Below, piece after piece: positions 6,340 through 22,929 of a DNA stretch of 64,000 nucleotides. The notes beneath the pieces were generated by a model. That model did not search any database, was not told the DNA's origin, and was given only the letters and a program-made list of their open reading frames with translations. The position numbers and the translations under genes are program-made. The DNA is from an uncultured archaeon (GTDB taxonomy: Archaea; Altiarchaeota; Altiarchaeia; IMC4; QMZM01): contig CAZJVE010000004.1 of assembly GCA_964549685.1 (NCBI GenBank), positions 20,687 through 84,686 of the forward strand, read 5' to 3'. Numbering within the stretch: the first letter of the stretch is position 1; each line of letters begins with the position of its first letter.

Positions 6340-9300
6340 GTGGACCCCAGGATTTTATTTATGGGCTGCATGTTTTTTCTCATTCTAATCAGCTCTGCAG
6401 ATGCAGCAATATATAACTGCTCCAACTGTTCCAACTGCGAGTCAGCAATCTCAGATGCTTCGGCCGGGGACACGGTCAACCTTTTGGCTGATATAGCAAA
6501 CCAGTCCTGGAACTGCATCGTCTGGGACAACAGCAACGTAACATTCGACTGCCAGCAGCACGGTATAGATGGTACTGACACCCTCTACGGAATTGTCATG
6601 GAGTACGACAAAGGAAACGTCATAAAAAACTGTGTGATTACTGACTTCATGATGGGGATATACCTCTATTATTCCGACAACAACCAGATTGGCGATAATA
6701 CTATAGAGTCAAACACCGGCAATGGAATCAAGCTGAGTCATTCCGCTGGCAACCTGATATCCGGCAATACATTGAAATCAAACACGGAGGACGGGCTCTA
6801 TGTCTTTGGTTCAGGGAGCCAGGACAACACCATTCTCAACAACCTCGCGAGCTCGAACAACTACAACGGAATCTACATCCGCGACTCCTCCAGCAATACC
6901 CTCACAAACAATACTGCAAACTCCAACGACGACCACGGAATCCGCCTTCGCGAGTCCTTCAACAACACCCTCACAAGCAATACAGCAAACTCCAACACAA
7001 TGGACGGAATCAGTTTGTATGATTCCTCCAACAACACCATTACAGGAAACACCGCAAACTCGAACAGCTATTATGGAATCTACATCGTCTATCCCTCGGG
7101 CAGCACGGTGAACTCGAACGAGGCGTGCTATAACGATGTAGATGATATCCACCTCTATAACAGCGAGGATAACTCAGGAGATGAGAACACCTGCGACACG
7201 ACCTATGAGTGGAACGATGAAGGAGCTACTGGATGCACCAATGCCTGCGGGGCTGCAACATCGACCAGCAGCACATCTACATCAACCTCGACAAGCACGA
7301 CACCAAGCACGATAAATGTTACTACGTCTACATCCACATCGACCAGTACAATATCGACAACCAGCACTACCTCAACCTCGACAAGCACAAGCACAACAAC
7401 CCTGCCCTTGGGGGAGACTACCTGCAGCAACTGCTCCGACTGCAGCAATAAACTGAACGGAAGCTACTCCACAGTCAGGCTTGATGCCGATATAACCGAA
7501 CACAGCCACAACTGCATAGAATTCAATACAAATGGCACGGTGTTCGACTGCCAGGGCCATATCATTGATGGGAACTATACTTCCCTATCCGGCAGCGGAG
7601 TTTATATCTCAGACAAGTCCTCCAACACAGTAAAGAACTGCATAATCACGGACTTCAACCGTGGAATCTACGTTTACTACTCGCCCAGCAATACTCTCAT
7701 AAACAACTCCGTCTCGAGCAACATGTATGGCGTCCATCTCCACATGTCCAACTATAGCACTATCGACAGCAACACAGTGGAATCGAATCTGGATTTCGGC
7801 ATTCTCCTGTCCTTTTCCAGCTACAGCTACATGGCGAATAACAGGTTTTGCTCACACGGAGTCCTGGATATATTCCTGGAATACGTTACAGGAAATTCCG
7901 GCGACGAGAACACCTGCGACAGCCCCGGAGGATGGAACGATACGGGAACAACCTACTGCACATATGGCTGCAGTGCAGTAACGACAACAACAACATCAAC
8001 AACCTCCACAACCACAATCCAGCCCCAGGTAATGCTGGCGAGAATTCTCCCTGATGAGGCCCTTCCGGGCGAGAATCTAACGGTCACACTTAGTCTGGAC
8101 GTAAACGAATCGAACACCCCGAACAGCATCGGTATAACTGAAACACCGCCGGCCGGCTGGGAGATATTGGAGACGTCAATAGACGGCAACCTTCAGTCAG
8201 CACCCGGCTCGATAGAGTGGCTTCTCTGGGACATGGGCACATCGGTGGAGGACATGAATATCACATACACCTTGCACGTGCCAGAGAATGCAAATGGAAC
8301 CTATTACTTCAGTGGGGAGTTCATGTACTACCTGGGCGATACGCGCACGGATGACAACATATTCGGCGATGAGCTGATAATCGTCAATGGAACATCCGTC
8401 CTGAGGCCGCACCTTACGGTCTCAAGGGGCAACACAACAATAAACGAAAATTACATAGACCTCGAATTTATTGTAGAGAATGATGGCAATTCAACGGCAG
8501 AGAATATAAGCGTCTGGACCTGGCTTGCTGGGTTCATTCCTGCAAGGGAGACCACCTACAACTACAATTCCAGCAACTTCTCGTTGGAGAGCTATGGTTC
8601 TGCCGTAAAGCTCGTGCTGAACTCGCTGGGGTCTCAGACCTCCACCAGCATGCGCTTCACCGCAGTGCCTGTTCTTGCCGAGGATGATGTTGACTACGAG
8701 ATTGATTCCACAGGCCATGTGGACGTAACCTACATTGACAGCGACGGGGTTGAATACTCCGAAACCTTCACGACATCTGCAAGCATCCAGGAGCAGGACG
8801 TCTACTCGGCAATCTCGGCCTCGGACTACCTTATAGTTACGAACCCTTCAAGGCTCTACTCCTACTACTCCAATGCCGATGTCCATAGCCTTCTCCTGGT
8901 AATGAGCAAACTGGCAAGGGAGGAGAACGGCGTTCTCGGCTTTGTTACGAACTATTCGGCAGAGTCCCTGGAGAGACTGATAGACAACGGATGGAACGGC
9001 AGGATGAATTCCCAGTGGAGGGACGACGGATTCCTGCTCCTTGTCGGAGAGACCGAGATAATCCCGTCCTGGGACATCAGCTTCGATTGCGAGGGCAGCC
9101 TCCCCCTATCCCTGACGGCCACGAGCTCGGATAACGTCTATGCCGACATACTGGAGGGCGACTCCTATGCCCCCGAGCTGTATATCGGCAGAATCATAGG
9201 GAATTCCGCCAGCGACCTGGAGAATTCCATCACGAACTCAATCGACGCCTCTCTGCAGAGGGACAATGCGCTGATTGCCAGTGGAAGCGGAAACGGGTGG

Positions 9301-11250
9301 GAGAGCTTCCTCAACAACGCAATCGAGGCTGTAGACATACTGAGCGACTGGTTCAGCACAACCCGGCTCTACATGGGCAACTACAGCACGGACGGGGAGA
9401 AATTCAACGAGTTCAGCAGTTATACGAGCGATGCCGACCTGATATTCTGGAGGGACCACGGCTCCGAGCAGTCCTGGGGCACCGGCTTCATCGATACGGA
9501 CAATGCAGCCAGCCTGGACTTGAGCTCCCTTCCATTAGTCTTCTCATCCGCATGCCTCACCGGGCATTATCAAAATACCTACAGCCTGGCCGAGGCCTTC
9601 CTTGCCAATGGCGCTGGAGTATTCATCGGCTCGACCGAGGTCAGCTACCGCACATTCAACAACGAATTCTCCAAGACGTTCTTCAATGAGTTCATGCACT
9701 CTACTGAGCGGCCGGTGGGCAAGTCACTGCGGGAGGCAAAGAGGGAGTTCAGGTCTGCAGGAACCGGCTCCTGCCAGATGAAGGCCCTGCTTGGCTATAC
9801 GATAAACGAATACAACCTCTATGGCAATCCGAAGCTCGGCTCCAGTTCGATACAGCAATCAGAGCTGATAGGAATACAGACCGTGGAAGGGCCGCTCTCC
9901 TCCCTCAATGTCACGGTTCCGGACTACACTGTAACTGAGATGTTCAGCGAGCACTGGGTCGAGATTCCCAGCGGCAACATGCTCCTCGAGCCGGGCAACT
10001 GGCAGATACCCTACTACAGGACAGCCATATCCTATCCTGCGGGCTATAAGGTACAGGGCGTTTCCATACTGGAAAGGGACGGTCTTATGCAGGCTACCGG
10101 GTTGATCATCCCTGAAGTGAGCATGGAGACGGGTGGAATTCCAACGGATAAGAGCCATGGCGTATTGCCGCAGAACCCCGGCTTCTATCCCAGCTCCGAC
10201 TTCAGTTGGGAGACGGTCGAATACCTTAACGGTACAACTATCCTCGTCATCTCGATGTACCCGTTCTACTACGATGCCAATACGACTGAGGTTCAGTTCT
10301 ACAAGAACTACTCCTTCGGAATAAGCTACAGTCTATCTTTTGTGACTATGGGCCGGGTGCAAACGGACAAGGAAAACTACCTGATTGGAGAGCAGGTCAG
10401 CATAAGCTTTGACGCAAACAACACACAGATACCCATAAACGCCACCGTCAATGCAACGATAAGGTACTATGGCAACAACGAGATTGCAGACTCGATAGGC
10501 CCCCAGACAATCAGCGTGGATGCCGGCGTTACGGAGGGTCAGATATACTGGAATTCCACCGGCTTTGAGGCAGGGTATTATCTCGTCAGCGTGAAGCTGT
10601 CAGACCCCAACGGATATGAGCTGGACTCAGCAACCGAGAGATTCAGACTTGGTTTAGTTTCCGGTGAGATGGCTGATTTCTCGGCGTCGCCCCAGAGAAT
10701 ACGGATAGGGGAGTACGCGAACATTTCGCTAATATTCGATAACATCGGCACAGAGAACATCTCCGGTTCAGCCGCAATAAAAATCTACAATTCAAGTAGC
10801 TCTCTAGTGGGGGAGTTCAACCACAGTTTCACCAACCTGAACCCCCTGGACGCAGTTGACTTCTCATTCATATTCACTCCTTCGGCTGTCGATACGTACA
10901 AGATAATCGGCTTCATCCTCTACGGGAGCGAATCCACAGAGCCGCAGGAGATTAACATGACTGTGGGGTGTGCCATGAGGGGAGATGCCCAACCCTGTGA
11001 CTCCATAATCGAAGACCTGGAGTTCCTGCTTTACCTGGACCTATGGGGCCAGGACGAGGTGGAGAATTCCCAGGTTCTTGAATCTGTTGAAAACTGGATA
11101 GATTATGGTAGCTGTGAGATAGAGGGGGACACCCCGCCATGCGGCGCTGTAGAGCTGGCTGAGGTGATAGATTTTATAACTGAGTGGGATGCAGGAAGTG
11201 CAGATTTGGAGGACGTAATCGATTTGATAAACGAATGGGTGCCGGAGTGA
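6340..11250 (+). CDS. Secreted multidomain protein: two NosD/right-handed beta-helix modules, cohesin-like domain, C25 (gingipain-family) cysteine peptidase, propeptide-like domain, Ig-like domains, C-terminal duplicated dockerin-like motif
   Basis: Signal peptide; GIYL..S.NNT(L/I)..N repeats; DYLIVT, LLLVGE, SDNVYAD, IGRI, WRDHG (His), SACLTG (Cys) and YNLYGNP motifs typical of C25. Confidence 0.8.
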   Translation: MDPRILFMGCMFFLILISSADAAIYNCSNCSNCESAISDASAGDTVNLLADIANQSWNCIVWDNSNVTFDCQQHGIDGTDTLYGIVMEYDKGNVIKNCVITDFMMGIYLYYSDNNQIGDNTIESNTGNGIKLSHSAGNLISGNTLKSNTEDGLYVFGSGSQDNTILNNLASSNNYNGIYIRDSSSNTLTNNTANSNDDHGIRLRESFNNTLTSNTANSNTMDGISLYDSSNNTITGNTANSNSYYGIYIVYPSGSTVNSNEACYNDVDDIHLYNSEDNSGDENTCDTTYEWNDEGATGCTNACGAATSTSSTSTSTSTSTTPSTINVTTSTSTSTSTISTTSTTSTSTSTSTTTLPLGETTCSNCSDCSNKLNGSYSTVRLDADITEHSHNCIEFNTNGTVFDCQGHIIDGNYTSLSGSGVYISDKSSNTVKNCIITDFNRGIYVYYSPSNTLINNSVSSNMYGVHLHMSNYSTIDSNTVESNLDFGILLSFSSYSYMANNRFCSHGVLDIFLEYVTGNSGDENTCDSPGGWNDTGTTYCTYGCSAVTTTTTSTTSTTTIQPQVMLARILPDEALPGENLTVTLSLDVNESNTPNSIGITETPPAGWEILETSIDGNLQSAPGSIEWLLWDMGTSVEDMNITYTLHVPENANGTYYFSGEFMYYLGDTRTDDNIFGDELIIVNGTSVLRPHLTVSRGNTTINENYIDLEFIVENDGNSTAENISVWTWLAGFIPARETTYNYNSSNFSLESYGSAVKLVLNSLGSQTSTSMRFTAVPVLAEDDVDYEIDSTGHVDVTYIDSDGVEYSETFTTSASIQEQDVYSAISASDYLIVTNPSRLYSYYSNADVHSLLLVMSKLAREENGVLGFVTNYSAESLERLIDNGWNGRMNSQWRDDGFLLLVGETEIIPSWDISFDCEGSLPLSLTATSSDNVYADILEGDSYAPELYIGRIIGNSASDLENSITNSIDASLQRDNALIASGSGNGWESFLNNAIEAVDILSDWFSTTRLYMGNYSTDGEKFNEFSSYTSDADLIFWRDHGSEQSWGTGFIDTDNAASLDLSSLPLVFSSACLTGHYQNTYSLAEAFLANGAGVFIGSTEVSYRTFNNEFSKTFFNEFMHSTERPVGKSLREAKREFRSAGTGSCQMKALLGYTINEYNLYGNPKLGSSSIQQSELIGIQTVEGPLSSLNVTVPDYTVTEMFSEHWVEIPSGNMLLEPGNWQIPYYRTAISYPAGYKVQGVSILERDGLMQATGLIIPEVSMETGGIPTDKSHGVLPQNPGFYPSSDFSWETVEYLNGTTILVISMYPFYYDANTTEVQFYKNYSFGISYSLSFVTMGRVQTDKENYLIGEQVSISFDANNTQIPINATVNATIRYYGNNEIADSIGPQTISVDAGVTEGQIYWNSTGFEAGYYLVSVKLSDPNGYELDSATERFRLGLVSGEMADFSASPQRIRIGEYANISLIFDNIGTENISGSAAIKIYNSSSSLVGEFNHSFTNLNPLDAVDFSFIFTPSAVDTYKIIGFILYGSESTEPQEINMTVGCAMRGDAQPCDSIIEDLEFLLYLDLWGQDEVENSQVLESVENWIDYGSCEIEGDTPPCGAVELAEVIDFITEWDAGSADLEDVIDLINEWVPE

Positions 11251-11338
11251 AATGAGAAATTCGGACACCAAAGCAATTATATCCTATCCCATCTAATCTA
11301 TAATTATACTTTTTTCAAAAGAAACTTATAGATTAAAG

Positions 11339-14300
11339 ATGAATTCGAAATTCATAACTCTTGTTGCCGTTTTAATCCTTGTTTCCACCGCATACGGGCA
11401 GGAAACAACCCCCTATGCTGTTGTTGGTCGCGTCTATCAGCAGGATGGCGAAACACTCCAGGCCGATGCTGCCATCACCCTTATCTACCTACCGACCGGC
11501 GAGACCCTCACTCAGGATTCCTCGGCAAGCGGCGACTATCTCTTCGACATCTCGGACTTACCCGGCGGCTACGAGGTCGGGGAGCAGATACAGATTATTG
11601 CCGAATACAACAATTCCGGGGCGAGCGTCATAGAGACGATAATCGAGGACGGCCCCATATTCGCCCAGAGCCTCGTTCTGGGCCCGCTGGCAGATAACGT
11701 CTCTGTCGTTCCGAACTATCTCCAGGGCGGCGAGACTGCCGAGGTTACTGTAATAAGCCTCGTCGTAAACGCTGTCGTCAATGCAACAATAGAGGGGGCA
11801 ACGACCTTCCTTACCCAGGGGGAGCTGGGCACATATTCTGGCTATATTACTGCCCCCGACGATGACGGCGTCTATGTAGTTGATATACTGATGGAAAGCC
11901 CCGAGGGCACAACTGCACACTACCAGGAACTCCTGACGGTCGACAACCTCCCGCCCTCTCTCGTGATATACTATCCAACTAACGGCACCGCCACAACCAA
12001 TCTGACAATACTGGTTGACGGAATTACTGAGCCGGATGCGACCGTAACCGTGGACGGAGTCGACGTGAACGTATCTGAACTGGGGAGATTCAACCACACT
12101 GTGACACTGGAAGCCGGCACCAACACCATCGTAGTTGATGCAGAGGACAGGGCAGGCAACATAAACCGGACGAGAGTTACCGTATTCCTCTACGCGCTCT
12201 ACATCTCTGAGGTTTCGGCAGACTCGGTCCAGCTCGGCGAAGGGACCACAATCTACGCCGAGGTTATCTCAACCTTCGACATAGCCGGCGTAATAGCGCA
12301 GGTCCTCTCGCCTGACGGAACTACCCTGAACTATCCGATGGTTGAGGCCGACGGCGGCTATGATGTTGACATCCCGGAATATGACATCGCCCAGATAGGC
12401 GACTATAACGTAACAGTAACTGCAACGGATGTAAACGGAAACACAACCAACGGAACCGGATGGTTCGAGGTTTACGGCACGAGAAGGTTCTACGGAGATG
12501 TCCTGGATTCCGAGAGCAATCCCGTTTCCACCACATTCAGTCTCTACAGGCCCGGAACCGAATACCTCATCCATGAATTCATAACCGACGTCTTTGGTGA
12601 ATATGATGTAACGATTCACAGCAGGAATTACGACCCAATGCTTGAATTCTCGGACATGGAATTCAAGCTGAACAACATAAACTTCACCCCGCTCCATGAC
12701 GACCCCATAGACGTAGACCTCCTGGAAGGCAATGAAGTCTATATTGCCACTACCGAACCCATCAAGGGCTTTGCGGTCGATACAAACATCACAGCGACCG
12801 GCATTGTGGAGATTACCTACTCGCAACTGGAAATAAGCAACGAGGAGCTGATTGAGATTTATGGGTGCAACGACTGGGACTTTGGGAACAAGACATGCAG
12901 GGGCTTATGGACGGCCCTTGACAGCCAGGTGGACAAGTTCGCAAACACCGTAACAGCGGCAATAAGCAAGCCGCTGGAGTCAACCGCCTATATGGCTGTG
13001 GAGGCCTCAAAGTGCGGCGACGGGGAATGCATACTGGAATATGGGGAAACCTGCAGCACCTGTCCGATTGACTGTGGCACCTGTCCCACGGGAGGGGGAG
13101 CGACAGACGTTTCCGGGATAGAGGCAACACTTCTCATCCTGATAGAAAAGATAACCATTCTCGAGGAGAGACTTAATCTCACTCAGGAGCAGATAAACAT
13201 AAACCTCGAAAGCCGGGAAGTGACAGAGTATCTGAGGGGCGCGATATACAACCAGACGCAGGACATGGCCCTCCTTCTTCTCGCGAAAAAGGTCGAGCTG
13301 GTTTCCGGCTACCAGGTCGTTTCGGCTGAATTATACCCTGGCGAGTTTACAAAAACGTCCATAAGAATCAAGAACCCGTCCAACAAGAGCACAACAATGG
13401 CCGTGAATATATCCGGAAAGGTCGTGGACTTCATAAGCTTCGAAGAAGAAGCAGTGGAGTTAACGCCCGGCGAGGAATCTGACCTCATAATAAACACCTT
13501 CATTCCCGAGGGAACGACTGCCGGCAACTACTATGGTGAGTTAACCTTAACCATCGCAGATATAGCCTCGAATATACCTGTAAATATAAGGGTCCTCGAG
13601 AGGAGGGAGAGACTTCTTGACCTCAAGATTAACCCCCTTACGGACGTTATTGCCCCCGGAAGAACCCTCCGGGTTGATGTCAGTCTTTACAATCTTGGAA
13701 CCAAGGATGTCAATGTCGAATTCCTGCTCCAGCTTGTAGATTCCATAACTAACGACATAGTCGTCGAGAAATCGGAGAACATATCCATAGCTGCGGGGGC
13801 AAGCATCCCCCGGATAGAGGACCTCAATATTTCCGAGGGCGTCAGGGAAGGAAAATACATAGTGAAAGGCATAGCCCGTTATCAAGGAGAGGGAGAGAGG
13901 GAGGTCGTTTCCATATCCTATGTTGACGTTAGTAAGTCATTCTTTGAGTTGCAAATCTTTGGCATACCGGTCTGGATAATCCTGCTTGTTTTCTTCATCG
14001 TAACTCTGAGCTATGTAGCATTCCTCCTCTACAAGAGGGAGCAGTCGAGAAAGAAACGTTATCTCGAGCTGGTTGAACTCAGGAGCCTGCCACAGCCTGG
14101 ACCGCGCTCAGGAGTCATCGGCAAACTGGCGGAGACCGCAATAAGGGCATTTATGCCGGTAGACCGGCTGCAGATGCATACTCTTATCGCAGGGGCAACC
14201 GGTTGTGGAAAGACAGTTGCTGCCCAGGTTCTGGTTGAGGAAGCACTCCTGAAAGAAGCCGCGGTCCTCGTTTTCGACCCAACTGCCCAGTGGAGCGGAT

Positions 14301-15724
14301 TCCTGAGAGCGAACAAGGACGCGGGAATGTTCCGTCTCTATCCAGCATTCAAGATGAAGGACAGCGACGCGAGGGTCTTCAACGGCAACGTCTACACGAT
14401 AACGGAACCCGGCCAGAGGATAGAAGTAGGAAAGCACATCAAACCTGGAGAGATTTCCGTGTTCTGCCTACATAAACTCGACCCCTCCCAGATTGATTCG
14501 ATAGTCGAGAATACGGTAAGGGAGGTCTTCCTTGCGAACCTTGAGGAGACACCAAAGCTAAGGGCCCTCTTCGTGTATGACGAGGTCCACCGCCTGCTGC
14601 CAAAATTCGGTGGCTCAGGAAAGGGTTTCACCCAGGTCGAGAGGGCAGTCAGGGAATTCAGAAAGTGGGGCATAGGTCTTGTTCTGATTTCGCAGGTTTT
14701 GTCGGACTTCGTGGGAGAGATTAAGGCAAACATAGGTACAGAGGTTCAGATGAGGTCCCGCTATGAGGGCGACCTAGAAAGGATTAAGATGAAGTACGGC
14801 GAAGACATCCTGCGCTCAGTTGTGAAGTCAGCTGTCGGAACCGGTATGGTGCAGAACGCGGAGTACAACAAAGGAAGGCCATACTTCGTCAGCTTTAGAC
14901 CCCTGCTCCATAATCCCCACAGACTTTCCGACGAAGAGCTTGACAACTATGACAAGTTCAACAAGGAGATAACCAAACTCAGGGATAAACTGGAAATTCT
15001 CAAGAAGGGTGGAATTGACGTATTCGACCTGGAACTGGAGCTGAATCTGGCACTGGACAATGTGAAGAAGGGCTCATTTGACGTGGTCAAGATGTATCTG
15101 GAATCCCTGGGCCCAAGGATAGAGGACGAATTCTCCAAGATGGGCACCGGGGAGAGGGAGAAGGCCGAGGCCAAGGCAAAAGAGGAGGAAGAGAGTGCAA
15201 GAAGGGATGCTGAGAAAGATGCAAAGCACGGGGAGATGCTTGAGGGCCTTAAGGAGAGAAGGGAAGAGAGAAACGAGAAGTGGGAGCGCCTAAAGACGGA
15301 AAAGCCCGAGGAAAAGCCATCTCCTGAGAAAAAGGAACTGAGCTCCGATGAGAAAAAGGCGGGTGAGAGGGTAAGGGAGATAATACGCCGTGGCAGGGGG
15401 GGCGCTGAGGGGAAAAGAGCGCCGTCCAGACGCCCCCTAGGGGAAAAGCCAGCCGAGAAACCACCTGAAAAGCCACCGGCTCCTCCAGCAGGGGAAAAGC
15501 CACCAGAGAAACCACCTGAGAGACCACCAGCTCCTCCAGCCAAGGAAAAGCCCGCTGGAGAGGACGAGGAGCTGAAGAATATGCGCAAGGAGGTGGAGGA
15601 GCTGAAGGAGCTTCAGGAAGAGCTAAAGAAGTCTGGAGGCAAGATAACCCCTGAGATGAGGAAGAAGATAGAGGAGAAACTGAGGGCGAAGAGGGAAAGG
15701 GAGAAGAAATCGTCAGGCACATAA
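11339..15724 (+). CDS. Type I membrane protein: large Ig-like/Cys-rich ectodomain fused to a cytoplasmic HerA/FtsK/VirB4-like (DUF87) P-loop ATPase
   Basis: Signal peptide; Ig-like repeats; CGDGEC...ETCSTCPIDCGTC; TM at ~13955-14032; Walker A GATGCGKT, VFDPT, Walker B LFVYDEVH, REFRKWG, LISQ; Pro/Glu/Lys tail. Confidence 0.85.
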   Translation: MNSKFITLVAVLILVSTAYGQETTPYAVVGRVYQQDGETLQADAAITLIYLPTGETLTQDSSASGDYLFDISDLPGGYEVGEQIQIIAEYNNSGASVIETIIEDGPIFAQSLVLGPLADNVSVVPNYLQGGETAEVTVISLVVNAVVNATIEGATTFLTQGELGTYSGYITAPDDDGVYVVDILMESPEGTTAHYQELLTVDNLPPSLVIYYPTNGTATTNLTILVDGITEPDATVTVDGVDVNVSELGRFNHTVTLEAGTNTIVVDAEDRAGNINRTRVTVFLYALYISEVSADSVQLGEGTTIYAEVISTFDIAGVIAQVLSPDGTTLNYPMVEADGGYDVDIPEYDIAQIGDYNVTVTATDVNGNTTNGTGWFEVYGTRRFYGDVLDSESNPVSTTFSLYRPGTEYLIHEFITDVFGEYDVTIHSRNYDPMLEFSDMEFKLNNINFTPLHDDPIDVDLLEGNEVYIATTEPIKGFAVDTNITATGIVEITYSQLEISNEELIEIYGCNDWDFGNKTCRGLWTALDSQVDKFANTVTAAISKPLESTAYMAVEASKCGDGECILEYGETCSTCPIDCGTCPTGGGATDVSGIEATLLILIEKITILEERLNLTQEQININLESREVTEYLRGAIYNQTQDMALLLLAKKVELVSGYQVVSAELYPGEFTKTSIRIKNPSNKSTTMAVNISGKVVDFISFEEEAVELTPGEESDLIINTFIPEGTTAGNYYGELTLTIADIASNIPVNIRVLERRERLLDLKINPLTDVIAPGRTLRVDVSLYNLGTKDVNVEFLLQLVDSITNDIVVEKSENISIAAGASIPRIEDLNISEGVREGKYIVKGIARYQGEGEREVVSISYVDVSKSFFELQIFGIPVWIILLVFFIVTLSYVAFLLYKREQSRKKRYLELVELRSLPQPGPRSGVIGKLAETAIRAFMPVDRLQMHTLIAGATGCGKTVAAQVLVEEALLKEAAVLVFDPTAQWSGFLRANKDAGMFRLYPAFKMKDSDARVFNGNVYTITEPGQRIEVGKHIKPGEISVFCLHKLDPSQIDSIVENTVREVFLANLEETPKLRALFVYDEVHRLLPKFGGSGKGFTQVERAVREFRKWGIGLVLISQVLSDFVGEIKANIGTEVQMRSRYEGDLERIKMKYGEDILRSVVKSAVGTGMVQNAEYNKGRPYFVSFRPLLHNPHRLSDEELDNYDKFNKEITKLRDKLEILKKGGIDVFDLELELNLALDNVKKGSFDVVKMYLESLGPRIEDEFSKMGTGEREKAEAKAKEEEESARRDAEKDAKHGEMLEGLKERREERNEKWERLKTEKPEEKPSPEKKELSSDEKKAGERVREIIRRGRGGAEGKRAPSRRPLGEKPAEKPPEKPPAPPAGEKPPEKPPERPPAPPAKEKPAGEDEELKNMRKEVEELKELQEELKKSGGKITPEMRKKIEEKLRAKREREKKSSGT

Positions 15725-15811
15725 AAGCACCCGTCTCAAATCTACACTTTTTATCGTCTATTCTTAATATATTTCTATCTTATAGTATCATCCATTCTGT
15801 CCCCTTCCAAG

Positions 15812-16663
15812 ATGATAAACCCCTTGCGCAAACTACTCAAAAAACTCGGTCTGGGCGCTCTTGCAACCAGGGAGAAACCCGCTGAGGAAGTTAAGGGTGC
15901 AAAGAAGAACAGGATAATAGCGGTTGCGAACCAGAAAGGCGGCGTGGGGAAAACAACGACTGCTATTAACCTTGCGGCCTATCTCGCCATGATGGAGAAC
16001 AAGGTCCTTCTCATAGATATAGACCCCCAGGCCAACAGCACCATCGGACTCGGGATAGAGAAGGACAGCATATCCGATTCGATAGCCGATATACTCACCG
16101 ACAAGGCAAAGGTAAAGGACGTAATTCTCCCGACAAAGGTTAAGGGACTTAGCATTATTCCTGCAAGCGTCCATCTGGCCGATGCCGAGATAAAACTGGT
16201 CGGGATGAATTTCCGCGAGACAATCCTGAAGAATTCCATTAATAACCTGACGAGGAACTACGATTTCGTCCTGGTAGACTGCCCTCCCTCCCTCGGTCTT
16301 TTGGCCCTGAATGCATTAACGGCAGCAGATTCGGTCGTAATCCCTGTCCAGTGCGAGTATTTTGCTCTGGAAGGCCTGAACGAATTCATGAATGTCGTAA
16401 GCCTGATACAGGAGAGGGTAAACCCCGGGCTTGAGATAGACGGCATACTCCTTACGATGTACCAAAAGGATACAAAGCACGTGAATGAAATTCTCAAAGA
16501 CATCCGGAAACTGTTCGGCGGGAACATCTATGCAACAGTCATCCCCCGGGATGAGAAATTCCCCGAGTCCTCAAGTTTCGGGAAACCCATCGGAGTCTAT
16601 GATAAGAAGTCCGACGGGGCCAAAGCGTATGAAGAATTAGCCCATGAATTTTTGGGTCAATAA
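15812..16663 (+). CDS. parA: ParA/Soj-family ATPase
   Basis: NQKGGVGKTT deviant Walker A, DIDPQAN, DCPPSLG, PVQCEYFALEG. Confidence 0.92.
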   Translation: MINPLRKLLKKLGLGALATREKPAEEVKGAKKNRIIAVANQKGGVGKTTTAINLAAYLAMMENKVLLIDIDPQANSTIGLGIEKDSISDSIADILTDKAKVKDVILPTKVKGLSIIPASVHLADAEIKLVGMNFRETILKNSINNLTRNYDFVLVDCPPSLGLLALNALTAADSVVIPVQCEYFALEGLNEFMNVVSLIQERVNPGLEIDGILLTMYQKDTKHVNEILKDIRKLFGGNIYATVIPRDEKFPESSSFGKPIGVYDKKSDGAKAYEELAHEFLGQ

Positions 16664-16665
16664 AA

Positions 16666-19128
16666 ATGGCAAAGAAATCAAAATCTAAAGACTTAGAAGC
16701 GCTGATACCTGCTTCCAGAGCTAAGAAAACAAAAAAAGTCAAGGAGTCCGAAGTAAAGGATTACGGAAAAGTCGCTGACATTTTGGATATGACAAAGGAC
16801 TATCTTGCAGAGGTAGAGACGGAAAAGCAGAAAGTAGGGGCGGAGATGAGGAAAATAATGAAGGAAAGAGGGGAACTGAGAGATGAATGGAAGAACATAA
16901 AAGAAACCAGGGAGGAGGTAGAAAAAGCCAAGGAAGATCTGGAGAATGTTCTGAAGACAAAGGCCAAGAAAGTGGCAAAGGCCCTGCCAAAGGCCGTGGC
17001 AAAAAGTCAGGCATTGAGCACGCTTATTCCTGTAACTGGCCCCAAAGAAGGCAAAGGACCAAAGGGCGATGCTGGAAGCCTTCTGGGATTGGCCAAGACG
17101 TACCTTGCAGAGGTTGAGAAGGAAACCCGTGAGATAGAGGTCATGAGGGGGGAGGTGGAGAAGGAGGCTGCCAAGGTCGAAAAGGAGTGGGATAAAATAC
17201 AGAAATCACGGGAAGATATAGAAAAGCTCTTAGAGAAGAAGGAGCAGGACGAGAAGGAGATAGACCGGCGCAGGATTGAGGTCGAGAAGGAATTCGCCAA
17301 GATAGCCAACGAATGGGAGAAGATAGAGGGGATTCAAAATGATACGGATTCCCACCGCGACAAGCTCGACCAGGAATTCATCAAGGTTGGGAAGGAATGG
17401 ACTGAAATCAGGAAGAACAAGGCTCACCTGGAGAAGGAGCTCCAGAAGAAGAACCTCGACATGGACGAGGTTGACAGGCAGAGGTCAGAAATCGACGGGG
17501 GCCTGAAAAAGATAGGCCACGAGTGGGGCAAGCTGGAGGAGACGAGGAATTCTATAGAGAAGCAATCAACCGAGCTGGATAGGGAATTCGGCAAGCTCAA
17601 GGAGGAATGGAGCAATCTCAGGAAAAGCCAGGCTGAACTGAGCGAGGCAATGAAGAAGAGCGAGGTCGACCAGGAGAAGATAGCTCATCAGAGAGAGATA
17701 ATCACGGAGGAGATGAAGAAGATAAACGGAGAATGGAGCAAGATAGACGAGGCTAGGAAAGAGATGGAAGAGCACCGAACCAGCATTGCCCATGACTTGA
17801 AGAAGATAGATGAAGGCAAGGCGGAGCTTGAGGAGTACATGAAGAACAGAGAGGCCAGTAACAAGGAACTCGAAGAACAAAAATCCTCCCTAAAATCCGA
17901 ACTCTCAAAAATCACCGAAGAATGGTCGCAATTGCGCGAGAATCAGGCAAAGCTGGAAGAAACCCTCAGCAGCACTTCCGAATTCAACAAGAACGTTGAG
18001 GAGCAGAAGAGGCACATAGAAAAAGAGCTGAGGAAGATAGACGACGAGTGGAGGAAGATAGACGAGATTAACAAGAGAAGAGAAATCGACAAGAGGGCAA
18101 TCGAGCAGCAGAATAAGGAGATAGAGGCCGGGCTGAGGAAGATGGGCGAGGAATGGAGCAGCATAGAGGAGCACAAGAAGAAGATTGAGGATGACCGGAA
18201 GACCGTTGACCTGGATCTGGCCAAGGTAAGAATAGAATGGGACAAGCTGAAGGACGGAGAGAAAGAGTTCGATGAGAGAATGGCCCAAATCGAGGAGGAA
18301 GACAGAAAGAGGGGTTCCGAGAGGGACGAACTCGTCAAGCTCAGAAGGAAAATCGACGAAGACCTTGGCAGGATAAAGCTGGAGTGGGACAGGATAGAAC
18401 TGACACAGAAGGACATACAAAGGGAAAGGGACGACATGACCGAGGAATTAAACAAGATAGAGTCCGAGTGGCAGAAGATTCAATCTGCAGAGGAGGACCT
18501 CAGCATAGAACTCGGCAAAGGAAAGATAGACCGGCAGATGGTAGAGAACATTATGAAGAAGATAGACCGGGAGTTCAAGAAGGTACACAAGGACCTGGCC
18601 AAGGCCAAGAAGGACAAAACCAGGATAGACAAGCAGAGAAAGGCCATCACTGGCGAACTGAAGAAGATTGCCGAGATATGTGAAGGGGTCGCAGAGGAGG
18701 GCGAGAAGGCCATAAAAAGAATTCCCAGGGAGATAAAGATTCCGCTACAACCAAGCAGGGATATGGAGCTTCTTGAAAAAGAGAGGGGCAAGCTAAAGGC
18801 CGAGTGGGACAGGATAGAGTCCGAGTGGGACAAGCTGGAGAGCGTCCTCTACGAGTCCGGCGTTGAGGAGATGATGCATGACGTGAAGCTCAAGCAGGCG
18901 GGGCTTGAGAAGGAGAAGAAGGAGATTCTTGCAAAGGAGGAGAGACTAAAGTCGTTCATCGAGGAGGACGAGTTCGAGATAGAGAAGAAAAAGAAGGAGC
19001 TTGAGCTACTGCTTCTGGAGGACGAAAAGAGGCTCAGGGAGAGGGAGAAGGAGTTGCTAAAGGAAGAAAAAAAGCTCAGGGGCAAATACTCGGACATGAG
19101 GCAACTCTTCAAAAAAGGAACAAGGTGA
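16666..19128 (+). CDS. 820-aa coiled-coil protein with Glu-Trp repeats, unknown function
   Basis: E/K-rich heptads with 15 EW motifs. No Walker motifs and no TM segment. Starts 2 bp after parA. Confidence 0.85.
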   Translation: MAKKSKSKDLEALIPASRAKKTKKVKESEVKDYGKVADILDMTKDYLAEVETEKQKVGAEMRKIMKERGELRDEWKNIKETREEVEKAKEDLENVLKTKAKKVAKALPKAVAKSQALSTLIPVTGPKEGKGPKGDAGSLLGLAKTYLAEVEKETREIEVMRGEVEKEAAKVEKEWDKIQKSREDIEKLLEKKEQDEKEIDRRRIEVEKEFAKIANEWEKIEGIQNDTDSHRDKLDQEFIKVGKEWTEIRKNKAHLEKELQKKNLDMDEVDRQRSEIDGGLKKIGHEWGKLEETRNSIEKQSTELDREFGKLKEEWSNLRKSQAELSEAMKKSEVDQEKIAHQREIITEEMKKINGEWSKIDEARKEMEEHRTSIAHDLKKIDEGKAELEEYMKNREASNKELEEQKSSLKSELSKITEEWSQLRENQAKLEETLSSTSEFNKNVEEQKRHIEKELRKIDDEWRKIDEINKRREIDKRAIEQQNKEIEAGLRKMGEEWSSIEEHKKKIEDDRKTVDLDLAKVRIEWDKLKDGEKEFDERMAQIEEEDRKRGSERDELVKLRRKIDEDLGRIKLEWDRIELTQKDIQRERDDMTEELNKIESEWQKIQSAEEDLSIELGKGKIDRQMVENIMKKIDREFKKVHKDLAKAKKDKTRIDKQRKAITGELKKIAEICEGVAEEGEKAIKRIPREIKIPLQPSRDMELLEKERGKLKAEWDRIESEWDKLESVLYESGVEEMMHDVKLKQAGLEKEKKEILAKEERLKSFIEEDEFEIEKKKKELELLLLEDEKRLREREKELLKEEKKLRGKYSDMRQLFKKGTR

Positions 19129-19129
19129 G

Positions 19130-19372
19130 ATGGTCGAAGAACTGAAGAAAAAAATCGATGAGACGAAGGCAGAGGTCCAGGAGAGCTGGAGGCGAATCGA
19201 TGAGCTCGGGAAGGGAACACCGCAATCACTGCCAAAGCCCAAGGAGCAAAAGAAGCTCGAGGACAAGAGCAACGTAAGCCCGCTGAAGAGGGCGATGACA
19301 AAGGTGGGCCTCAAGAAAGACGGAGATAAGGAAGGCGGCGACTGGACCAGGGTGAAGAGTAACATTGACTGA
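19130..19372 (+). CDS. Small protein with a short coiled coil
   Basis: Starts 1 bp after the upstream stop with AGGTGA SD. VQESWRRIDE resembles the upstream EWxxI repeat. Confidence 0.6.
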   Translation: MVEELKKKIDETKAEVQESWRRIDELGKGTPQSLPKPKEQKKLEDKSNVSPLKRAMTKVGLKKDGDKEGGDWTRVKSNID

Positions 19373-19408
19373 TTGCTTTTTTACCCCCTAAATCTACTAT
19401 CTAATCCT

Positions 19409-20532
<1,124 letters not shown>

Positions 20533-20559
20533 ATAAGCAATCGAATAAATAACTGCAAA

Positions 20560-21069
20560 ATGGAAAGAGTCAATCTAGGCATCGTTGCCTCAGAATTCAA
20601 CTACGACATAACTTATGCCATGGTGCAGCTTGCAATGGAGCACGCAAGGTTTCTCGGAGCAGAAGTCGTTAAGATAATAAAGGTTCCCGGCGTCTTTGAC
20701 ACGCCGCTCGCAGTCAAAAAGCTGATGCAGATGCCGGACATAGACTGCGCAGTCGTTCTCGGTGCAGTAATAGAAGGGCAGACAGAACACGACGAAATCG
20801 TTGCCCAGCACGCATCCAGAAAGATTGCAGACCTCGCGCTTGACTACGGCAAGCCGGTCGGTCTCGGAATCTCAGGCCCTGGGATGAGCAGGCTCGAGGC
20901 ACATAAGAGGGTGGAATACGCCCGGCGCGCAGTAGAAGCAGCGGTAAAGATGTGCAGGGCCCTCGGCGACAGCGAAACAGGAGAAACGCACCTCAGTAGC
21001 GTAGGCGGCTTTGAAGACTCCGATTCTGAGACAAGTTCCGTCTTCAAGGACTTTATGGAGATGGGCTAG
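20560..21069 (+). CDS. ribH: 6,7-dimethyl-8-ribityllumazine synthase with C-terminal extension
   Basis: GIVASEFN, VPGVFDTP, LGAVIEGQTEHD, KPVGLGISGPG. Confidence 0.95.
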   Translation: MERVNLGIVASEFNYDITYAMVQLAMEHARFLGAEVVKIIKVPGVFDTPLAVKKLMQMPDIDCAVVLGAVIEGQTEHDEIVAQHASRKIADLALDYGKPVGLGISGPGMSRLEAHKRVEYARRAVEAAVKMCRALGDSETGETHLSSVGGFEDSDSETSSVFKDFMEMG

Positions 21070-21404
21070 TAAAGCTTCAGCTCCCCAGTAACCTTATCTA
21101 TTTCTTCCTCTGGAGCAGGACCTATCCCGACACAAGTCTTCGTCCCTGCCGGAATCTCCGTCTTCCCTTGATCCTGAATCAGATCGGTCGGCAGGCCCGA
21201 ATCCTTCGCATCCATAAAAACCTCAATCAGCTCCTTCTCGTTCTCCACCTTCAGCACGGACTTCTTCTGCCCCTGCCTGAGCCAGTCTTTTTTCCACTCA
21301 CTCTTGTCTGCTGCAGAAACGGAGGCATGAGCCACCTGTGCAGACAGCTTCCCCTTGCTCAGATTCAAGTCCTTCCTTGCCACAATGACCTGCTTCAGCT
21401 CCAT
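21066..21404 (-). CDS. pth2: Peptidyl-tRNA hydrolase Pth2
   Basis: KQVIVARKDL, GKLSAQVAHA, DQGKTEI, GIGP, IDKVTGELKL. Confidence 0.95.
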   Translation of the reverse strand: MELKQVIVARKDLNLSKGKLSAQVAHASVSAADKSEWKKDWLRQGQKKSVLKVENEKELIEVFMDAKDSGLPTDLIQDQGKTEIPAGTKTCVGIGPAPEEEIDKVTGELKLY

Positions 21405-21434
21405 TAGTTAAATATTCCATTCCAATAGTTTAAT

Positions 21435-22394
21435 ATGTCGAAGGAGTTATGGGTGAGGGCAGACGGCACCGATTCCTGGGAGGAGAGAAAAGAACTCGTA
21501 AAGACGGCGCTGGAGAGCGGAGCCCAGGCAGTTCTTGTTAATGCAGGCGAGGAGAAGCTTGTAAGGGAACTGGGAAAGATAAAGGTAGTTTCAGATGGGG
21601 GAGATTCAGACATATTTCTTACTAATGATATTAAAAAAATAAAAAAATCCACTGCGTTCTACTGTGAGATTAAGAGCAAGGAGGACGAGCGCCTCATAGC
21701 CGAGGCGGGCAAAGCCGCGGCTTATGTCATAATCAATGCCAAGGACTGGAAGGTCATTCCCCTCGAGAACCTGATTGCCGAGCTGAAGGGCAAGTGCAGT
21801 ATTCTGGCCGAGGCAGGCACAGAAAACGAGGCCCGCCTGGCCCTGGAAACCCTTGAGATAGGCACCGATGGAGTTCTTGCCAGCGCAGATTTCCAGGAAG
21901 TCAGGAAGATAAAGAACCTCATAGACTCCCTTTCGGCTGAGAAGCTGCAGCTGAGGACAGTGAAGGTCACTGCCGCTGAGCCGTCGGGAGAGCACGACAG
22001 CGCGTCCATCGACACCTGCTCAATCCTTAACCTCGGCGAAGGCCTTCTGGCAGATAACATCCTAGTCCACTCAGACACGGAGAAAATCCCCTGGATGGAA
22101 CCGACGCCGTTCAGGATAAATTTAGGTATTAATTCGAAAATTAAAATTCCTGATGGAATTAAATCAGTGAAGGAATTAAAGCCAGGAGACGAAATTCTTT
22201 CTGCTAATTTCGAGGGCAGGACACGGAGGCTCGTAGTCAATGAAATAATCTCCTCAAAGAAGAAGATGCTGAAGGTCAGCGCCGATAAATCCGAGCTAGT
22301 TATCCCAGACGACTCGGCCCTTGTTGGAAGAAAAGGGAAAAAGATTCCCGCCGGAAAACTGAAGCCCGGAGATGAGATATCTATTTCTCAATAA
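21435..22394 (+). CDS. 3-dehydroquinate synthase II family: intact N-terminal domain, degenerate C-terminal domain
   Basis: TALESG, DWKVIPLENLIA and ALETLEIGTDGVL are conserved. The C-terminal half is eroded (DSASIDTCS, PTPFRINLG; no LQNAETIRL or RHFG). Confidence 0.85.
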   Translation: MSKELWVRADGTDSWEERKELVKTALESGAQAVLVNAGEEKLVRELGKIKVVSDGGDSDIFLTNDIKKIKKSTAFYCEIKSKEDERLIAEAGKAAAYVIINAKDWKVIPLENLIAELKGKCSILAEAGTENEARLALETLEIGTDGVLASADFQEVRKIKNLIDSLSAEKLQLRTVKVTAAEPSGEHDSASIDTCSILNLGEGLLADNILVHSDTEKIPWMEPTPFRINLGINSKIKIPDGIKSVKELKPGDEILSANFEGRTRRLVVNEIISSKKKMLKVSADKSELVIPDDSALVGRKGKKIPAGKLKPGDEISISQ

Positions 22395-22929
22395 TCGTCT
22401 CTTCGACGGCCATTCCGAAGTGCCGGCCCATTCCTTCTTTATCCACCAGGGCAAGAACCTTATCTCCAGATTTCAGATTGACCACCGAGACCGCTTTGCC
22501 ATCCTCCGTCACGAGCCTGATTGTCTCGGCATTCTGCAGGAATGAATGGAATTCCACCTCCCCGCACTTCGCCTCAACAAGGAGAAACGGCCTCGTTTCT
22601 ATCTTCGACCTGACCACCTTCACCTCTCTTTCCTTCCCTTTGGAATCCACCGCGAGGAGGGGGTCGCCGCCCTTAAGCTCGACCAGGTAGCGCGTCTTCC
22701 CTCCTGGGACTAGGACATAGGCAGATACAGGCCCTGCATTTACTCTGAATGGCCTAGTCTCAACATACGGATTCTCAACAGTTTCAGAATGAATGAGAAA
22801 CATACCTCTCGACAGAGAGCCGATAAGCATACCCTCGCCCAGCTTCAGCTCGGTGTCGGTGTCTATACAGACCCTGTCCCCCGAGCCGACCTCTTCAATC
22901 TTCGTTATCTCAACAAGAGAGAGTTCCAT
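22381..22929 (-). CDS. Stand-alone C-terminal domain of 3-dehydroquinate synthase II
   Basis: GDRVCIDT, GEGMLIGS, HSETVENPYVETRPFRVNAG, LQNAETIRLV, RHFGMAVEETIIEK. No N-terminal domain. Confidence 0.9.
   Translation of the reverse strand: MELSLVEITKIEEVGSGDRVCIDTDTELKLGEGMLIGSLSRGMFLIHSETVENPYVETRPFRVNAGPVSAYVLVPGGKTRYLVELKGGDPLLAVDSKGKEREVKVVRSKIETRPFLLVEAKCGEVEFHSFLQNAETIRLVTEDGKAVSVVNLKSGDKVLALVDKEGMGRHFGMAVEETIIEK

Follow-up and report, generated by a model that had tools for sequence, protein, structure and literature searches.

In Myxococcus xanthus (M. xanthus), PomX carries a basic N-terminal peptide on a coiled-coil scaffold, and this peptide is a working activator of a ParA/MinD-type ATPase (passages of PMC7993993). 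For the ParA-ParB pair of the same bacterium, passages of PMC12462528 report that L11, L15, L18 and I19 of ParB bind a ParA pocket formed by V116, L150, L152, L155, L187 and L192, that R13 of ParB contacts Y81, E82, D110 and E117 of ParA, and that R238 of ParA is needed for DNA binding. The archaeal ParA partners described in the corresponding passages of PMC9178275 are DNA-binding proteins (SegB and AspA/ParB of pNOB8). How most archaea position chromosomes, division sites and large complexes is poorly known. Here we analyze a ParA locus of an uncultivated marine archaeon, represented by a metagenome-assembled genome of the Altiarchaeota (label G000; 1.17 Mb, 27 contigs, 85% complete). The stretch analyzed, hereafter the window, has a length of 64,000 nucleotides (nt) and lies on contig C4 of this genome (positions 20,687 to 84,686 of CAZJVE010000004.1, assembly GCA_964549685.1). 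The locus is compared below with those of G001 and G002, two genomes of the same genus, G011, a genome of another genus, and the metagenome contig L091. It comprises three genes, together called the trio:

15812..16663, plus strand: Soj-type ParA ATPase of 283 amino acids (aa) with an intact deviant Walker A motif, KGGVGKT (AAA_31, 2.3e-67)
16666..19128, plus strand: coiled-coil protein of 820 aa (CC), the proposed partner or adaptor of ParA (orthologues directly 3' of ParA in G001, G002, G011 and L091)
19130..19372, plus strand: 80-aa protein (conserved in G001, G002 and G011)

We favor, at about even confidence, the reading that the trio is a lineage-restricted Altiarchaeota operon in which a Soj-like ParA has lost ParB and works with a long coiled coil, forming a PomX-like module of ParA and adaptor for positioning. 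The observations behind this reading are the gene order and its conservation, the absence of ParB_N, the motif and profile similarity of the CC N terminus to ParB, a conserved peptide pocket in ParA and the geometry of the rod.

The three genes are tightly spaced. The ParA stop codon (16661-16663) and the CC ATG (16666) leave a gap of 2 bp, and the CC stop codon (19126-19128) is separated by 1 bp from the ATG of the 80-aa gene (19130), with AGGTGA directly 5' of this ATG. The open reading frame (ORF) listing and the letters read at both junctions thus bear out the layout described in an earlier note on this DNA. The note had also claimed that the trio encodes no ParB, CTPase or helix-turn-helix (HTH) domain, and family scans detect no ParB_N, CTPase or HTH domain in CC or the 80-aa protein, neither of which matches a Pfam or NCBIfam family above cut-off. 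Two further points that the note had singled out for checking, conservation of the trio and a canonical ParB elsewhere, gave results in line with its proposal. The trio is kept as a unit in two genera (four genomes plus L091). ParA and CC are adjacent in five loci (G000, G001, where ParA is cut by the contig start, G002, G011 and L091), and the 80-aa gene lies 3' of CC in all four loci that reach that far. L091 carries the tail of a neighboring ATPase gene (HerA_A, see below), a ParA with 87% identity and a CC start 2 nt downstream. ParB_N (PF02195) is found in none of the four trio genomes (81-86% complete), with the control positive in 10 of 14 known genomes.

Searches with CC gave a narrow distribution. 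Among 41 relatives, seven match whole CC at E ≤ 1e-3, strongly only in G000, G001, G002 and G011; the weak matches in G003, G014 and G016 (E 3e-4 to 9e-4) were taken as coiled-coil noise. The C-terminal 120 residues have a strong match in 4 of 61 genomes of the phylum, and the weak ones in G050, G021, G054 and G012 (E 6e-4 to 5e-3) were treated in the same way. A scan of the genomes of 185,579 species returned only four CC loci, in G001, G002 and G011, and in a search of 1.84 billion representatives, a hidden Markov model (HMM) of the N-terminal 60 residues matched a single protein, a fragment of like kind, 49 aa long. No homologue was found with full CC at 1e-5, no relatives by an alignment search of metagenome contigs and IMG/VR, and no match by tblastn in plasmids or phages, and the CC N-terminal profile gave only chance-level matches in the PDB (E ≥ 0.23). 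The surroundings of related ParA genes are informative about the place of CC. The nearest ParA relatives were examined at 76 metagenome loci; the downstream ORF has G[RK]G[LIV] within its first 60 residues in 70 cases and an NPxQPR-type box in 71, and all four downstream ORFs checked consist of ParB_N, HTH_ParB and ParB_C. Thus, CC occupies the slot in which related loci carry a ParB-type ORF.

By its sequence, the ParA of the trio is a Soj-type chromosomal ParA of bacterial type. Its best PDB matches are the ParA structure 8ray (1e-72) and Helicobacter pylori Soj (6iub, 2e-61), far above MinD or McdA, and K42 and K47 are invariant within a Walker A motif of the Soj/AAA_31 form KGGxGK[ST]. Identification as MinD was rejected, with scores of 119 bits for TIGR01969 (cut-off 201.75) and 91.9 for TIGR01968 (cut-off 212.9), and with an amphipathic helix that is N-terminal rather than the C-terminal membrane-targeting type. 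McdA proteins are not known to carry the signature Lys. Identification as McdA was likewise rejected, as this Lys is present here and McdA structures match at ~1e-18 compared with 1e-61 to 1e-72 for Soj and ParA. In a large protein collection the ParA forms a clade of its own with eight clusters at 72-98% identity and three at 51-53% (the G011 type), and beyond the phylum its closest relatives are chromosomal ParAs of bacteria (50-54% identity). A tree of 41 ParA sequences places both archaeal genera in one clade (support 99/99) among ParB-linked bacterial ParAs. A second Altiarchaeota group, the sister family f7, is separate in this tree, which leaves the deeper order unresolved.

The f7 ParAs are 37-49% identical and have an N-terminal extension of ~80 aa that looks winged helix-like by eye. 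A T2SSE ATPase with a basic N terminus (MGL[KR].K...) is encoded directly 3' of them, and T2SSF proteins and pilin-like genes come next (L031:2066-6492; L032:4375-8803; L033:6461-10662; L034:9633-13810), a setting unlike that of the trio. The f7 locus may encode a type IV pilus machine positioned by ParA.

Residue positions of the M. xanthus interface were transferred to the window ParA through its ungapped alignment with 8ray. The six pocket positions are I, L, L, L, L and V, so that the hydrophobic peptide pocket is kept, and the position of R238 is occupied by Lys, a conservative change. The positions around the R13 site (Y81, E82, D110 and E117) are A, D, H and K. In the sequences compared, the Tyr that receives the ParB Arg is Ala or Ser in all 11 members of the CC-linked clade and Tyr in all 18 bacterial relatives, a contrast that is a consistent pattern rather than a statistical result because only one or two independent lineages are involved. 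As far as the sequences go, the loss of this Tyr agrees with a partner in which the basic residue at the center of the motif has ceased to be fixed. The second peculiarity of this ParA is at its N terminus:

15812..15865, plus strand: N-terminal extension of ParA, residues 1-18, predicted amphipathic helix (residues 1-12 have a hydrophobic moment of 0.77)

L5, L8, L9 and L12 line one face of this helix, and R6, K7, K10 and K11 the other. Such an extension is found in 10 of 11 ParAs of the CC-linked clade (P0006 starts later) and in none of 18 bacterial ParAs. Seven ParAs of the type found in the window's genus share one extension motif; the three extensions of the g10 type differ in sequence. 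A membrane-binding or autoregulatory role of the helix is our conjecture.

The N-terminal unit of CC carries the elements that resemble ParB and one that does not:

[quoted passage not shown]
16801..16824, plus strand: YLAEVE.E, first copy, residues 46-53 (Y46, L47, A48, E49, E51 and E53 invariant in five aligned N-terminal units)
16999..17031, plus strand: peptide 2, residues 112-122, AKSQALSTLIP, the duplicated copy, found in G000 only (unit alignment)
17101..17124, plus strand: YLAEVE.E, second copy, residues 146-153 (DNA repeat D7, 300-nt spacing)

CC starts with MAKKS...GL..LI and has four Lys among residues 1-8. M1, K4, S5, L10, L13, I14 and P15 are identical in six CC N termini. Profile-profile comparison (hhalign) of the six CC N termini with 26 ParB N termini gave a probability of 72%, a P value of 3.3e-5 and a score of 22.6. 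The ungapped alignment pairs KKSKSKGLEtLIP with K.aLGRGLgALi, bringing K8 opposite R, G9 opposite G, L10 opposite L, L13 opposite L and I14 opposite I. None of 600 column shuffles (300 of each profile) reached this score, with maxima of 19.1 and 19.5 and a mean of ~7.5. In addition, the motif is as near to Met1 in CC as it is in ParB; most ParB motifs have their first Leu within positions 5-16. In G000 the unit is duplicated. Residues 1-100 align with 101-200 at 34% identity over 83 aa (E 7e-12), both copies have L..LIP and YLAEVE.E, with YLAEVE.E ~30 residues after each LIP peptide, and the repeats are spaced by 300 nt in the DNA. Contig X5 (16450-17090), from a run not flagged as source, spans the junction between the copies with zero differences. 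A single peptide is present in the CC proteins of G001, G002, G011 and L091 and in fragment P0001. The duplicated unit of ~100 aa reported in the earlier note is therefore real in G000, with both motifs in both copies, but is not a feature of the orthologues. Its proposal of ParB-like peptides survives for K-G-L-x-x-L-I, which is kept and significant in the profile-profile comparison, but not for the first L-G or in single-sequence tests; the central basic residue is K8 in this register, and neither G011 nor copy 2 has a basic residue at that position.

Several observations weigh against a ParB-like mode of action or against the positioning module as a whole. All CC copies lack the first Leu-Gly of the ParB motif, and L11 of M. 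xanthus ParB is needed for ParA binding (passages of PMC12462528). A 9-residue position-specific scoring matrix (PSSM) of LGRGLxALI built from 63 ParB motifs gives G000 CC -1.0 bit, rank 53 of 3161 ORF N termini, and a ParB N-terminal HMM gives 2-3 bits (E 17-33), with other G000 N termini scoring higher. At the central basic position, G011 has Met and copy 2 of G000 has Gln. Passages of PMC13170346 describe ParB R13 as essential for activation and not for binding, so that the CC peptide may tether more than activate; judged from these substitutions, a peptide with no fixed basic residue may tether ParA without activating it. Within the unit, YLAEVE.E is conserved more strictly than anything else, the LIP motif included, and ParB has no counterpart of it. 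The CC family is so small that covariation is not assessable, orc1/cdc6 lies on another contig than the trio, and no cargo of the trio was identified.

Downstream of the N-terminal unit, CC consists of a rod, a break and a C-terminal domain:

17086..18723, plus strand: continuous heptad coiled-coil rod, residues ~141-686 (Trp spacing, heptad phase and DNA repeats)
18724..18753, plus strand: proline-containing break, with P687, P693 and P696 (sequence)
18772..19125, plus strand: C-terminal helical domain, residues 703-820 (52% identical to G011 across these residues)

Every Trp-to-Trp distance is a multiple of seven (42, 28, 42, 28, 42, 63, 42, 35, 28, 49, 28, 112 and 7). The best self-lag gives a super-repeat of 70 aa, equal to the 210-nt DNA repeats, with Trp at a fixed heptad position. 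The heptad phase is constant from residue ~141 to ~700, and no proline occurs between residues 133 and 686. From its sequence CC is thus one unbroken rod of about 550 residues, in agreement with the long coiled-coil partner claimed in the earlier note. A canonical coiled coil rises by 0.148 nm per residue, and the rod would be roughly 80 nm long if canonical. Matches to SMC, Rad50 and JetC were rejected as coiled-coil noise, since no family passes its cut-off. CC orthologues have lengths of 770, 814 and 820 aa and of ~548 aa in G011 (two overlapping pieces). The part best conserved between the genera is residues 703-820, a candidate cargo- or anchor-binding end; residues 640-820 matched generic coiled coils only in the ESM Atlas (≤0.82). 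The 80-aa protein has an N-terminal helix like one CC repeat, a basic middle, PLKRAMTKVGLKK, and a conserved end, GGDWTRVKSNID. It is 74% identical in G001, 57% in G002 and 31% in G011, and has no family in Pfam, NCBIfam, PADLOC or PHROGs.

In the favored reading, ATP-bound dimers of ParA would assemble on a surface, more probably that of the nucleoid, because the DNA-binding Arg is conservatively replaced by Lys; the membrane is possible through the N-terminal amphipathic helix. The ~80 nm rod, the C-terminal domain and the 80-aa protein would form a scaffold or tether positioned by ParA, as in PomX/PomZ, and this scaffold may be linked to the membrane-anchored HerA/FtsK-like ATPases of the neighboring genes. 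We infer the binding of CC to ParA, the stimulation of the ATPase, the surface used and the cargo from the sequences. The most economical reading would be a ParA module that lacks ParB and has as its partner a coiled-coil scaffold, with a docking peptide that descends from ParB or mimics it; in function this would come nearest to PomX/PomZ. The arrangement suggests that a protein scaffold rather than a centromere is positioned.

The nearest neighbors and the ends of the transcription unit are as follows:

11339..15724, plus strand: membrane HerA-like ATPase, paralogue A (HerA_A), 1461 aa, candidate anchor or cargo (Pfam and PDB sequence matches)
15725..15811, plus strand: AT-rich spacer of 87 bp with TATA-like stretches, probably the promoter of the trio (sequence read; near-identical in G002)
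19377..19382, plus strand: T6 run immediately 3' of the 80-aa gene stop, probably the end of the transcription unit and its terminator (sequence read)

HerA_A combines an Ig-like ectodomain with a cytoplasmic P-loop ATPase of HerA/FtsK-like type; it also has a signal or transmembrane (TM) segment, a TM helix and a charged tail rich in Pro. It matches DUF87 (2.9e-9), HerA_C and Glucodextran_B in Pfam. Membrane HerA-like ATPases of this kind occur in 21 of 61 genomes of the phylum, often as two paralogues. In G000 the second, HerA_B, lies on contig C2 (L080:6978-12948) in a conserved cluster, DUF835(iKaiC)-KaiC-HerA_B-NurA, which is divergent from a DAP-decarboxylase-like gene. A further locus of this uncharacterized family is L037:1734-7807. 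The trio follows HerA_A in the window's genus and in L091. In G011 the order is different. The DAP-decarboxylase-like gene is followed divergently by ParA-CC-small-DUF835-KaiC-HerA_B-NurA, a region assembled from two contigs with an overlap of 127 identical nt; the insertion junction is unoccupied in contig C2 of G000, and the HerA_A orthologue of G011 (77%) is on another contig than its trio. Thus, the trio has moved as a block.

These arrangements bear on an alternative in which ParA on the nucleoid is tied via the rod to membrane HerA/FtsK-like ATPases with NurA and KaiC-like partners, bringing DNA to a translocase at division or DNA exchange. It is a more specific version of the favored reading, with the cargo or anchor named, and in that specific form we consider it unlikely. 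The trio is co-oriented with and adjoins a HerA-like paralogue in both genera, in two arrangements, and the ATPase domains of HerA_A and HerA_B are 55-58% identical. An ORF just 3' of the HerA_A orthologue of G011 (L079:1566-1919), at the site held by the trio in the window's genus, resembles an IS200/IS605-type transposase and fits a rearrangement there. The adjacency in both genera is suggestive; however, it rests on two events and could be chance. Most genomes with the ATPase are without the trio (21 have the ATPase, four the trio), so that the ATPase does not need the trio, and the AT-rich spacer suggests a separate promoter. The best PDB sequence matches of the ATPases are HerA helicases at 1e-5. 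The tail of HerA_B ends in two copies of GGW..F..ME.EW[KR]K; kinship of the CC repeats or the 80-aa protein with these tails was rejected, as the profile matches HerA_B only in the genome and misses both trio proteins. The link to the ectodomain ATPase drawn in the earlier note therefore holds at the level of the family, which adjoins the trio in both genera, but not as one fixed arrangement or as a general association of the ATPase with the trio.

Two further observations concern the surroundings of the HerA-like genes. The GGW..F..ME.EW[KR]K motif also ends a 498-aa coiled-coil protein 3' of HerA_B in G010 (L081:10622-12118). A highly charged protein of 330-414 aa with a conserved N terminus (..P.I.K....EQ.EID.LI..) lies beside HerA-like genes in five genomes (L076:7440-8585; L082:7365-8381; L083:6737-7741; L081:13570-14619; L080:866-2110). 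It has no Pfam family above cut-off, and in four loci, all except L076, a small membrane-type protein comes after it.

In a second alternative, the rod is a cytoskeletal or chromosome-organizing coiled coil that is merely co-transcribed with ParA. Its N-terminal motifs would serve oligomerization, a membrane or another protein, and ParA would act alone or with another partner. The weak resemblance to ParB peptides in single-sequence tests and the better conservation of YLAEVE.E than of the LIP motif are consistent with it, and coiled-coil partners that only localize ParA are known (DivIVA and TipN, passages of PMC9178275). However, the 2-bp spacing and the joint relocation of three genes, the profile-profile match in the ParB register at the same distance from Met1, and the place of the CC gene in the slot that holds a ParB-type ORF in related loci weigh against it. 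We judge this alternative improbable.

The flanks of the trio in the window are housekeeping genes (ribB/ribE/ribH, Pth2, DHQS-II, S8e, LeuA, IlvD and eIF2-beta), and the downstream synteny is the same in G001 and G002. A defense or mobile-element module, of the kind in which ParA-like NTPases are recruited to immunity or partition genes are carried by plasmids and viruses, is very improbable: a preprint reports many ParA-based immunity systems, some of them archaeal (passages of 10.64898/2026.10.19.760177), the distribution is patchy and the HerA-like proteins have weak PADLOC matches (mad8, 5.6e-15), but the flanks are of the housekeeping kind, there is no effector domain and no specific PADLOC or PHROGs match for CC or the 80-aa protein, plasmids, phages and IMG/VR gave no match to CC, and the passages of that preprint describe nothing of this architecture.

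Other features of the window lie around the trio. The ribB gene is listed from TTG 19373, abutting the 80-aa gene stop and taking in the T6 run; ATG 19409 (MSIQDAL...) is the likelier start. Two DHQS-II genes are convergent and overlap slightly (21435-22394, plus strand; 22381-22929, minus strand); one is full length (319 aa) and the other (182 aa) matches only profile positions 166-344, the C-terminal half. Upstream are the genes of two giant predicted surface proteins. The first (300-4979; 1560 aa) contains three lamin-tail domains; the second (6340-11250; 1636 aa) has NosD/beta-helix repeats and Thr/Ser linkers and gives a weak CHAT-like match. No Rfam family was found in window positions 11000-21500.

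A bolder extension of the favored reading, possible but on balance doubtful, concerns its origin and use. A horizontally acquired bacterial parAB would have been rebuilt, with the 5' end of parB kept, its CTPase/HTH body swapped for the ~80 nm rod, and ParA and the peptide co-adapted with loss of the Arg-Tyr contact. The result would be the first archaeal system in which ParA positions a protein scaffold, perhaps to mark in a PomX-like way where FtsZ is placed or to tether the nucleoid to membrane HerA/FtsK-type motors. If the pairing of ParA and CC is real, grafting activator peptides onto new bodies could yield new ParA cargos. ParA with a peptide of 15-30 residues is a compact pair testable in a heterologous host, and the recurrent neighborhood would give a first handle on the uncharacterized HerA/FtsK-like membrane ATPases. 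Literature listings and the cited passages on archaeal ParAs with coiled-coil partners and on DUF835/KaiC/HerA/NurA clusters yielded no description of the trio system. The earlier note's term "undescribed" is thus apt for this archaeal trio but not for the principle, since an N-terminal activating peptide on a coiled-coil scaffold is known from PomX (passages of PMC7993993).

Compared with described systems, the trio combines features of several. Like McdA/McdB, ParC/ParP and PpfA/TlpT, it pairs an orphan ParA with a candidate cargo-specific adaptor with a basic N-terminal region (passages of PMC7993993 and PMC9178275). In contrast to those systems, its ParA is far closer to the Soj structures and keeps the signature Lys, and no carboxysome, chemotaxis or other obvious cargo genes are nearby. 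In archaeal SegAB, SegB is a small RHH protein that binds DNA site-specifically and is encoded downstream of SegA; the 80-aa protein of the trio matched no family. Scy of Streptomyces is a coiled-coil protein that binds and localizes ParA. To our knowledge, polar landmark coiled coils (Scy, TipN of Caulobacter and DivIVA/Wag31) act besides ParB, not from the parA operon in the place of ParB, and have no known ParB-type N-terminal peptide. The likeness of CC to TipN and DivIVA/Wag31 is that of long coiled coils that bind or localize ParA (passages of PMC9178275).

The chromosomal ParABS systems (Soj/Spo0J; 8ray; 6iub) share with the trio a ParA of ~50% identity, the deviant Walker A motif, the hydrophobic pocket and the basic DNA-binding position, and in both the partner gene lies directly 3' of ParA; the start of CC, MAKKS...GL..LI, resembles that of ParB in part. 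However, CC has no ParB_N CTPase, HTH or dimerization domain, with no ParB_N elsewhere in G000, and this ParA has lost the Tyr for the ParB Arg and gained an N-terminal amphipathic extension. No parS-like non-coding repeat array was seen in 11000-21000, where the repeats all lie inside the CC and ATPase coding sequences (no genome-wide parS search was made).

PomX/PomZ of PomXYZ, which positions the division site of M. xanthus, differs in that the window ParA is of the Soj chromosomal type, the nearest relatives listed having ParB downstream, and in that the CC peptide resembles the ParB motif, which engages the hydrophobic pocket, whereas the PomX peptide is modeled at a MinE-type site (passages of PMC13170346). 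According to the ORF listing, the trio operon has no large second partner gene such as that of PomY, the second activator of PomXYZ, and the CC rod is much longer than PomX, with an unbroken heptad repeat and an archaeal host. The likeness lies in a ParA-family ATPase with a partner that does not bind DNA, a Lys/Arg-rich N-terminal peptide and a coiled-coil scaffold (passages of PMC7993993 and PMC13170346). For CC it is a likeness of architecture, seen in the Lys-rich first eight residues and in the rod between residues ~141 and ~700. The source organism, with two FtsZ genes, also resembles M. xanthus in dividing with FtsZ.

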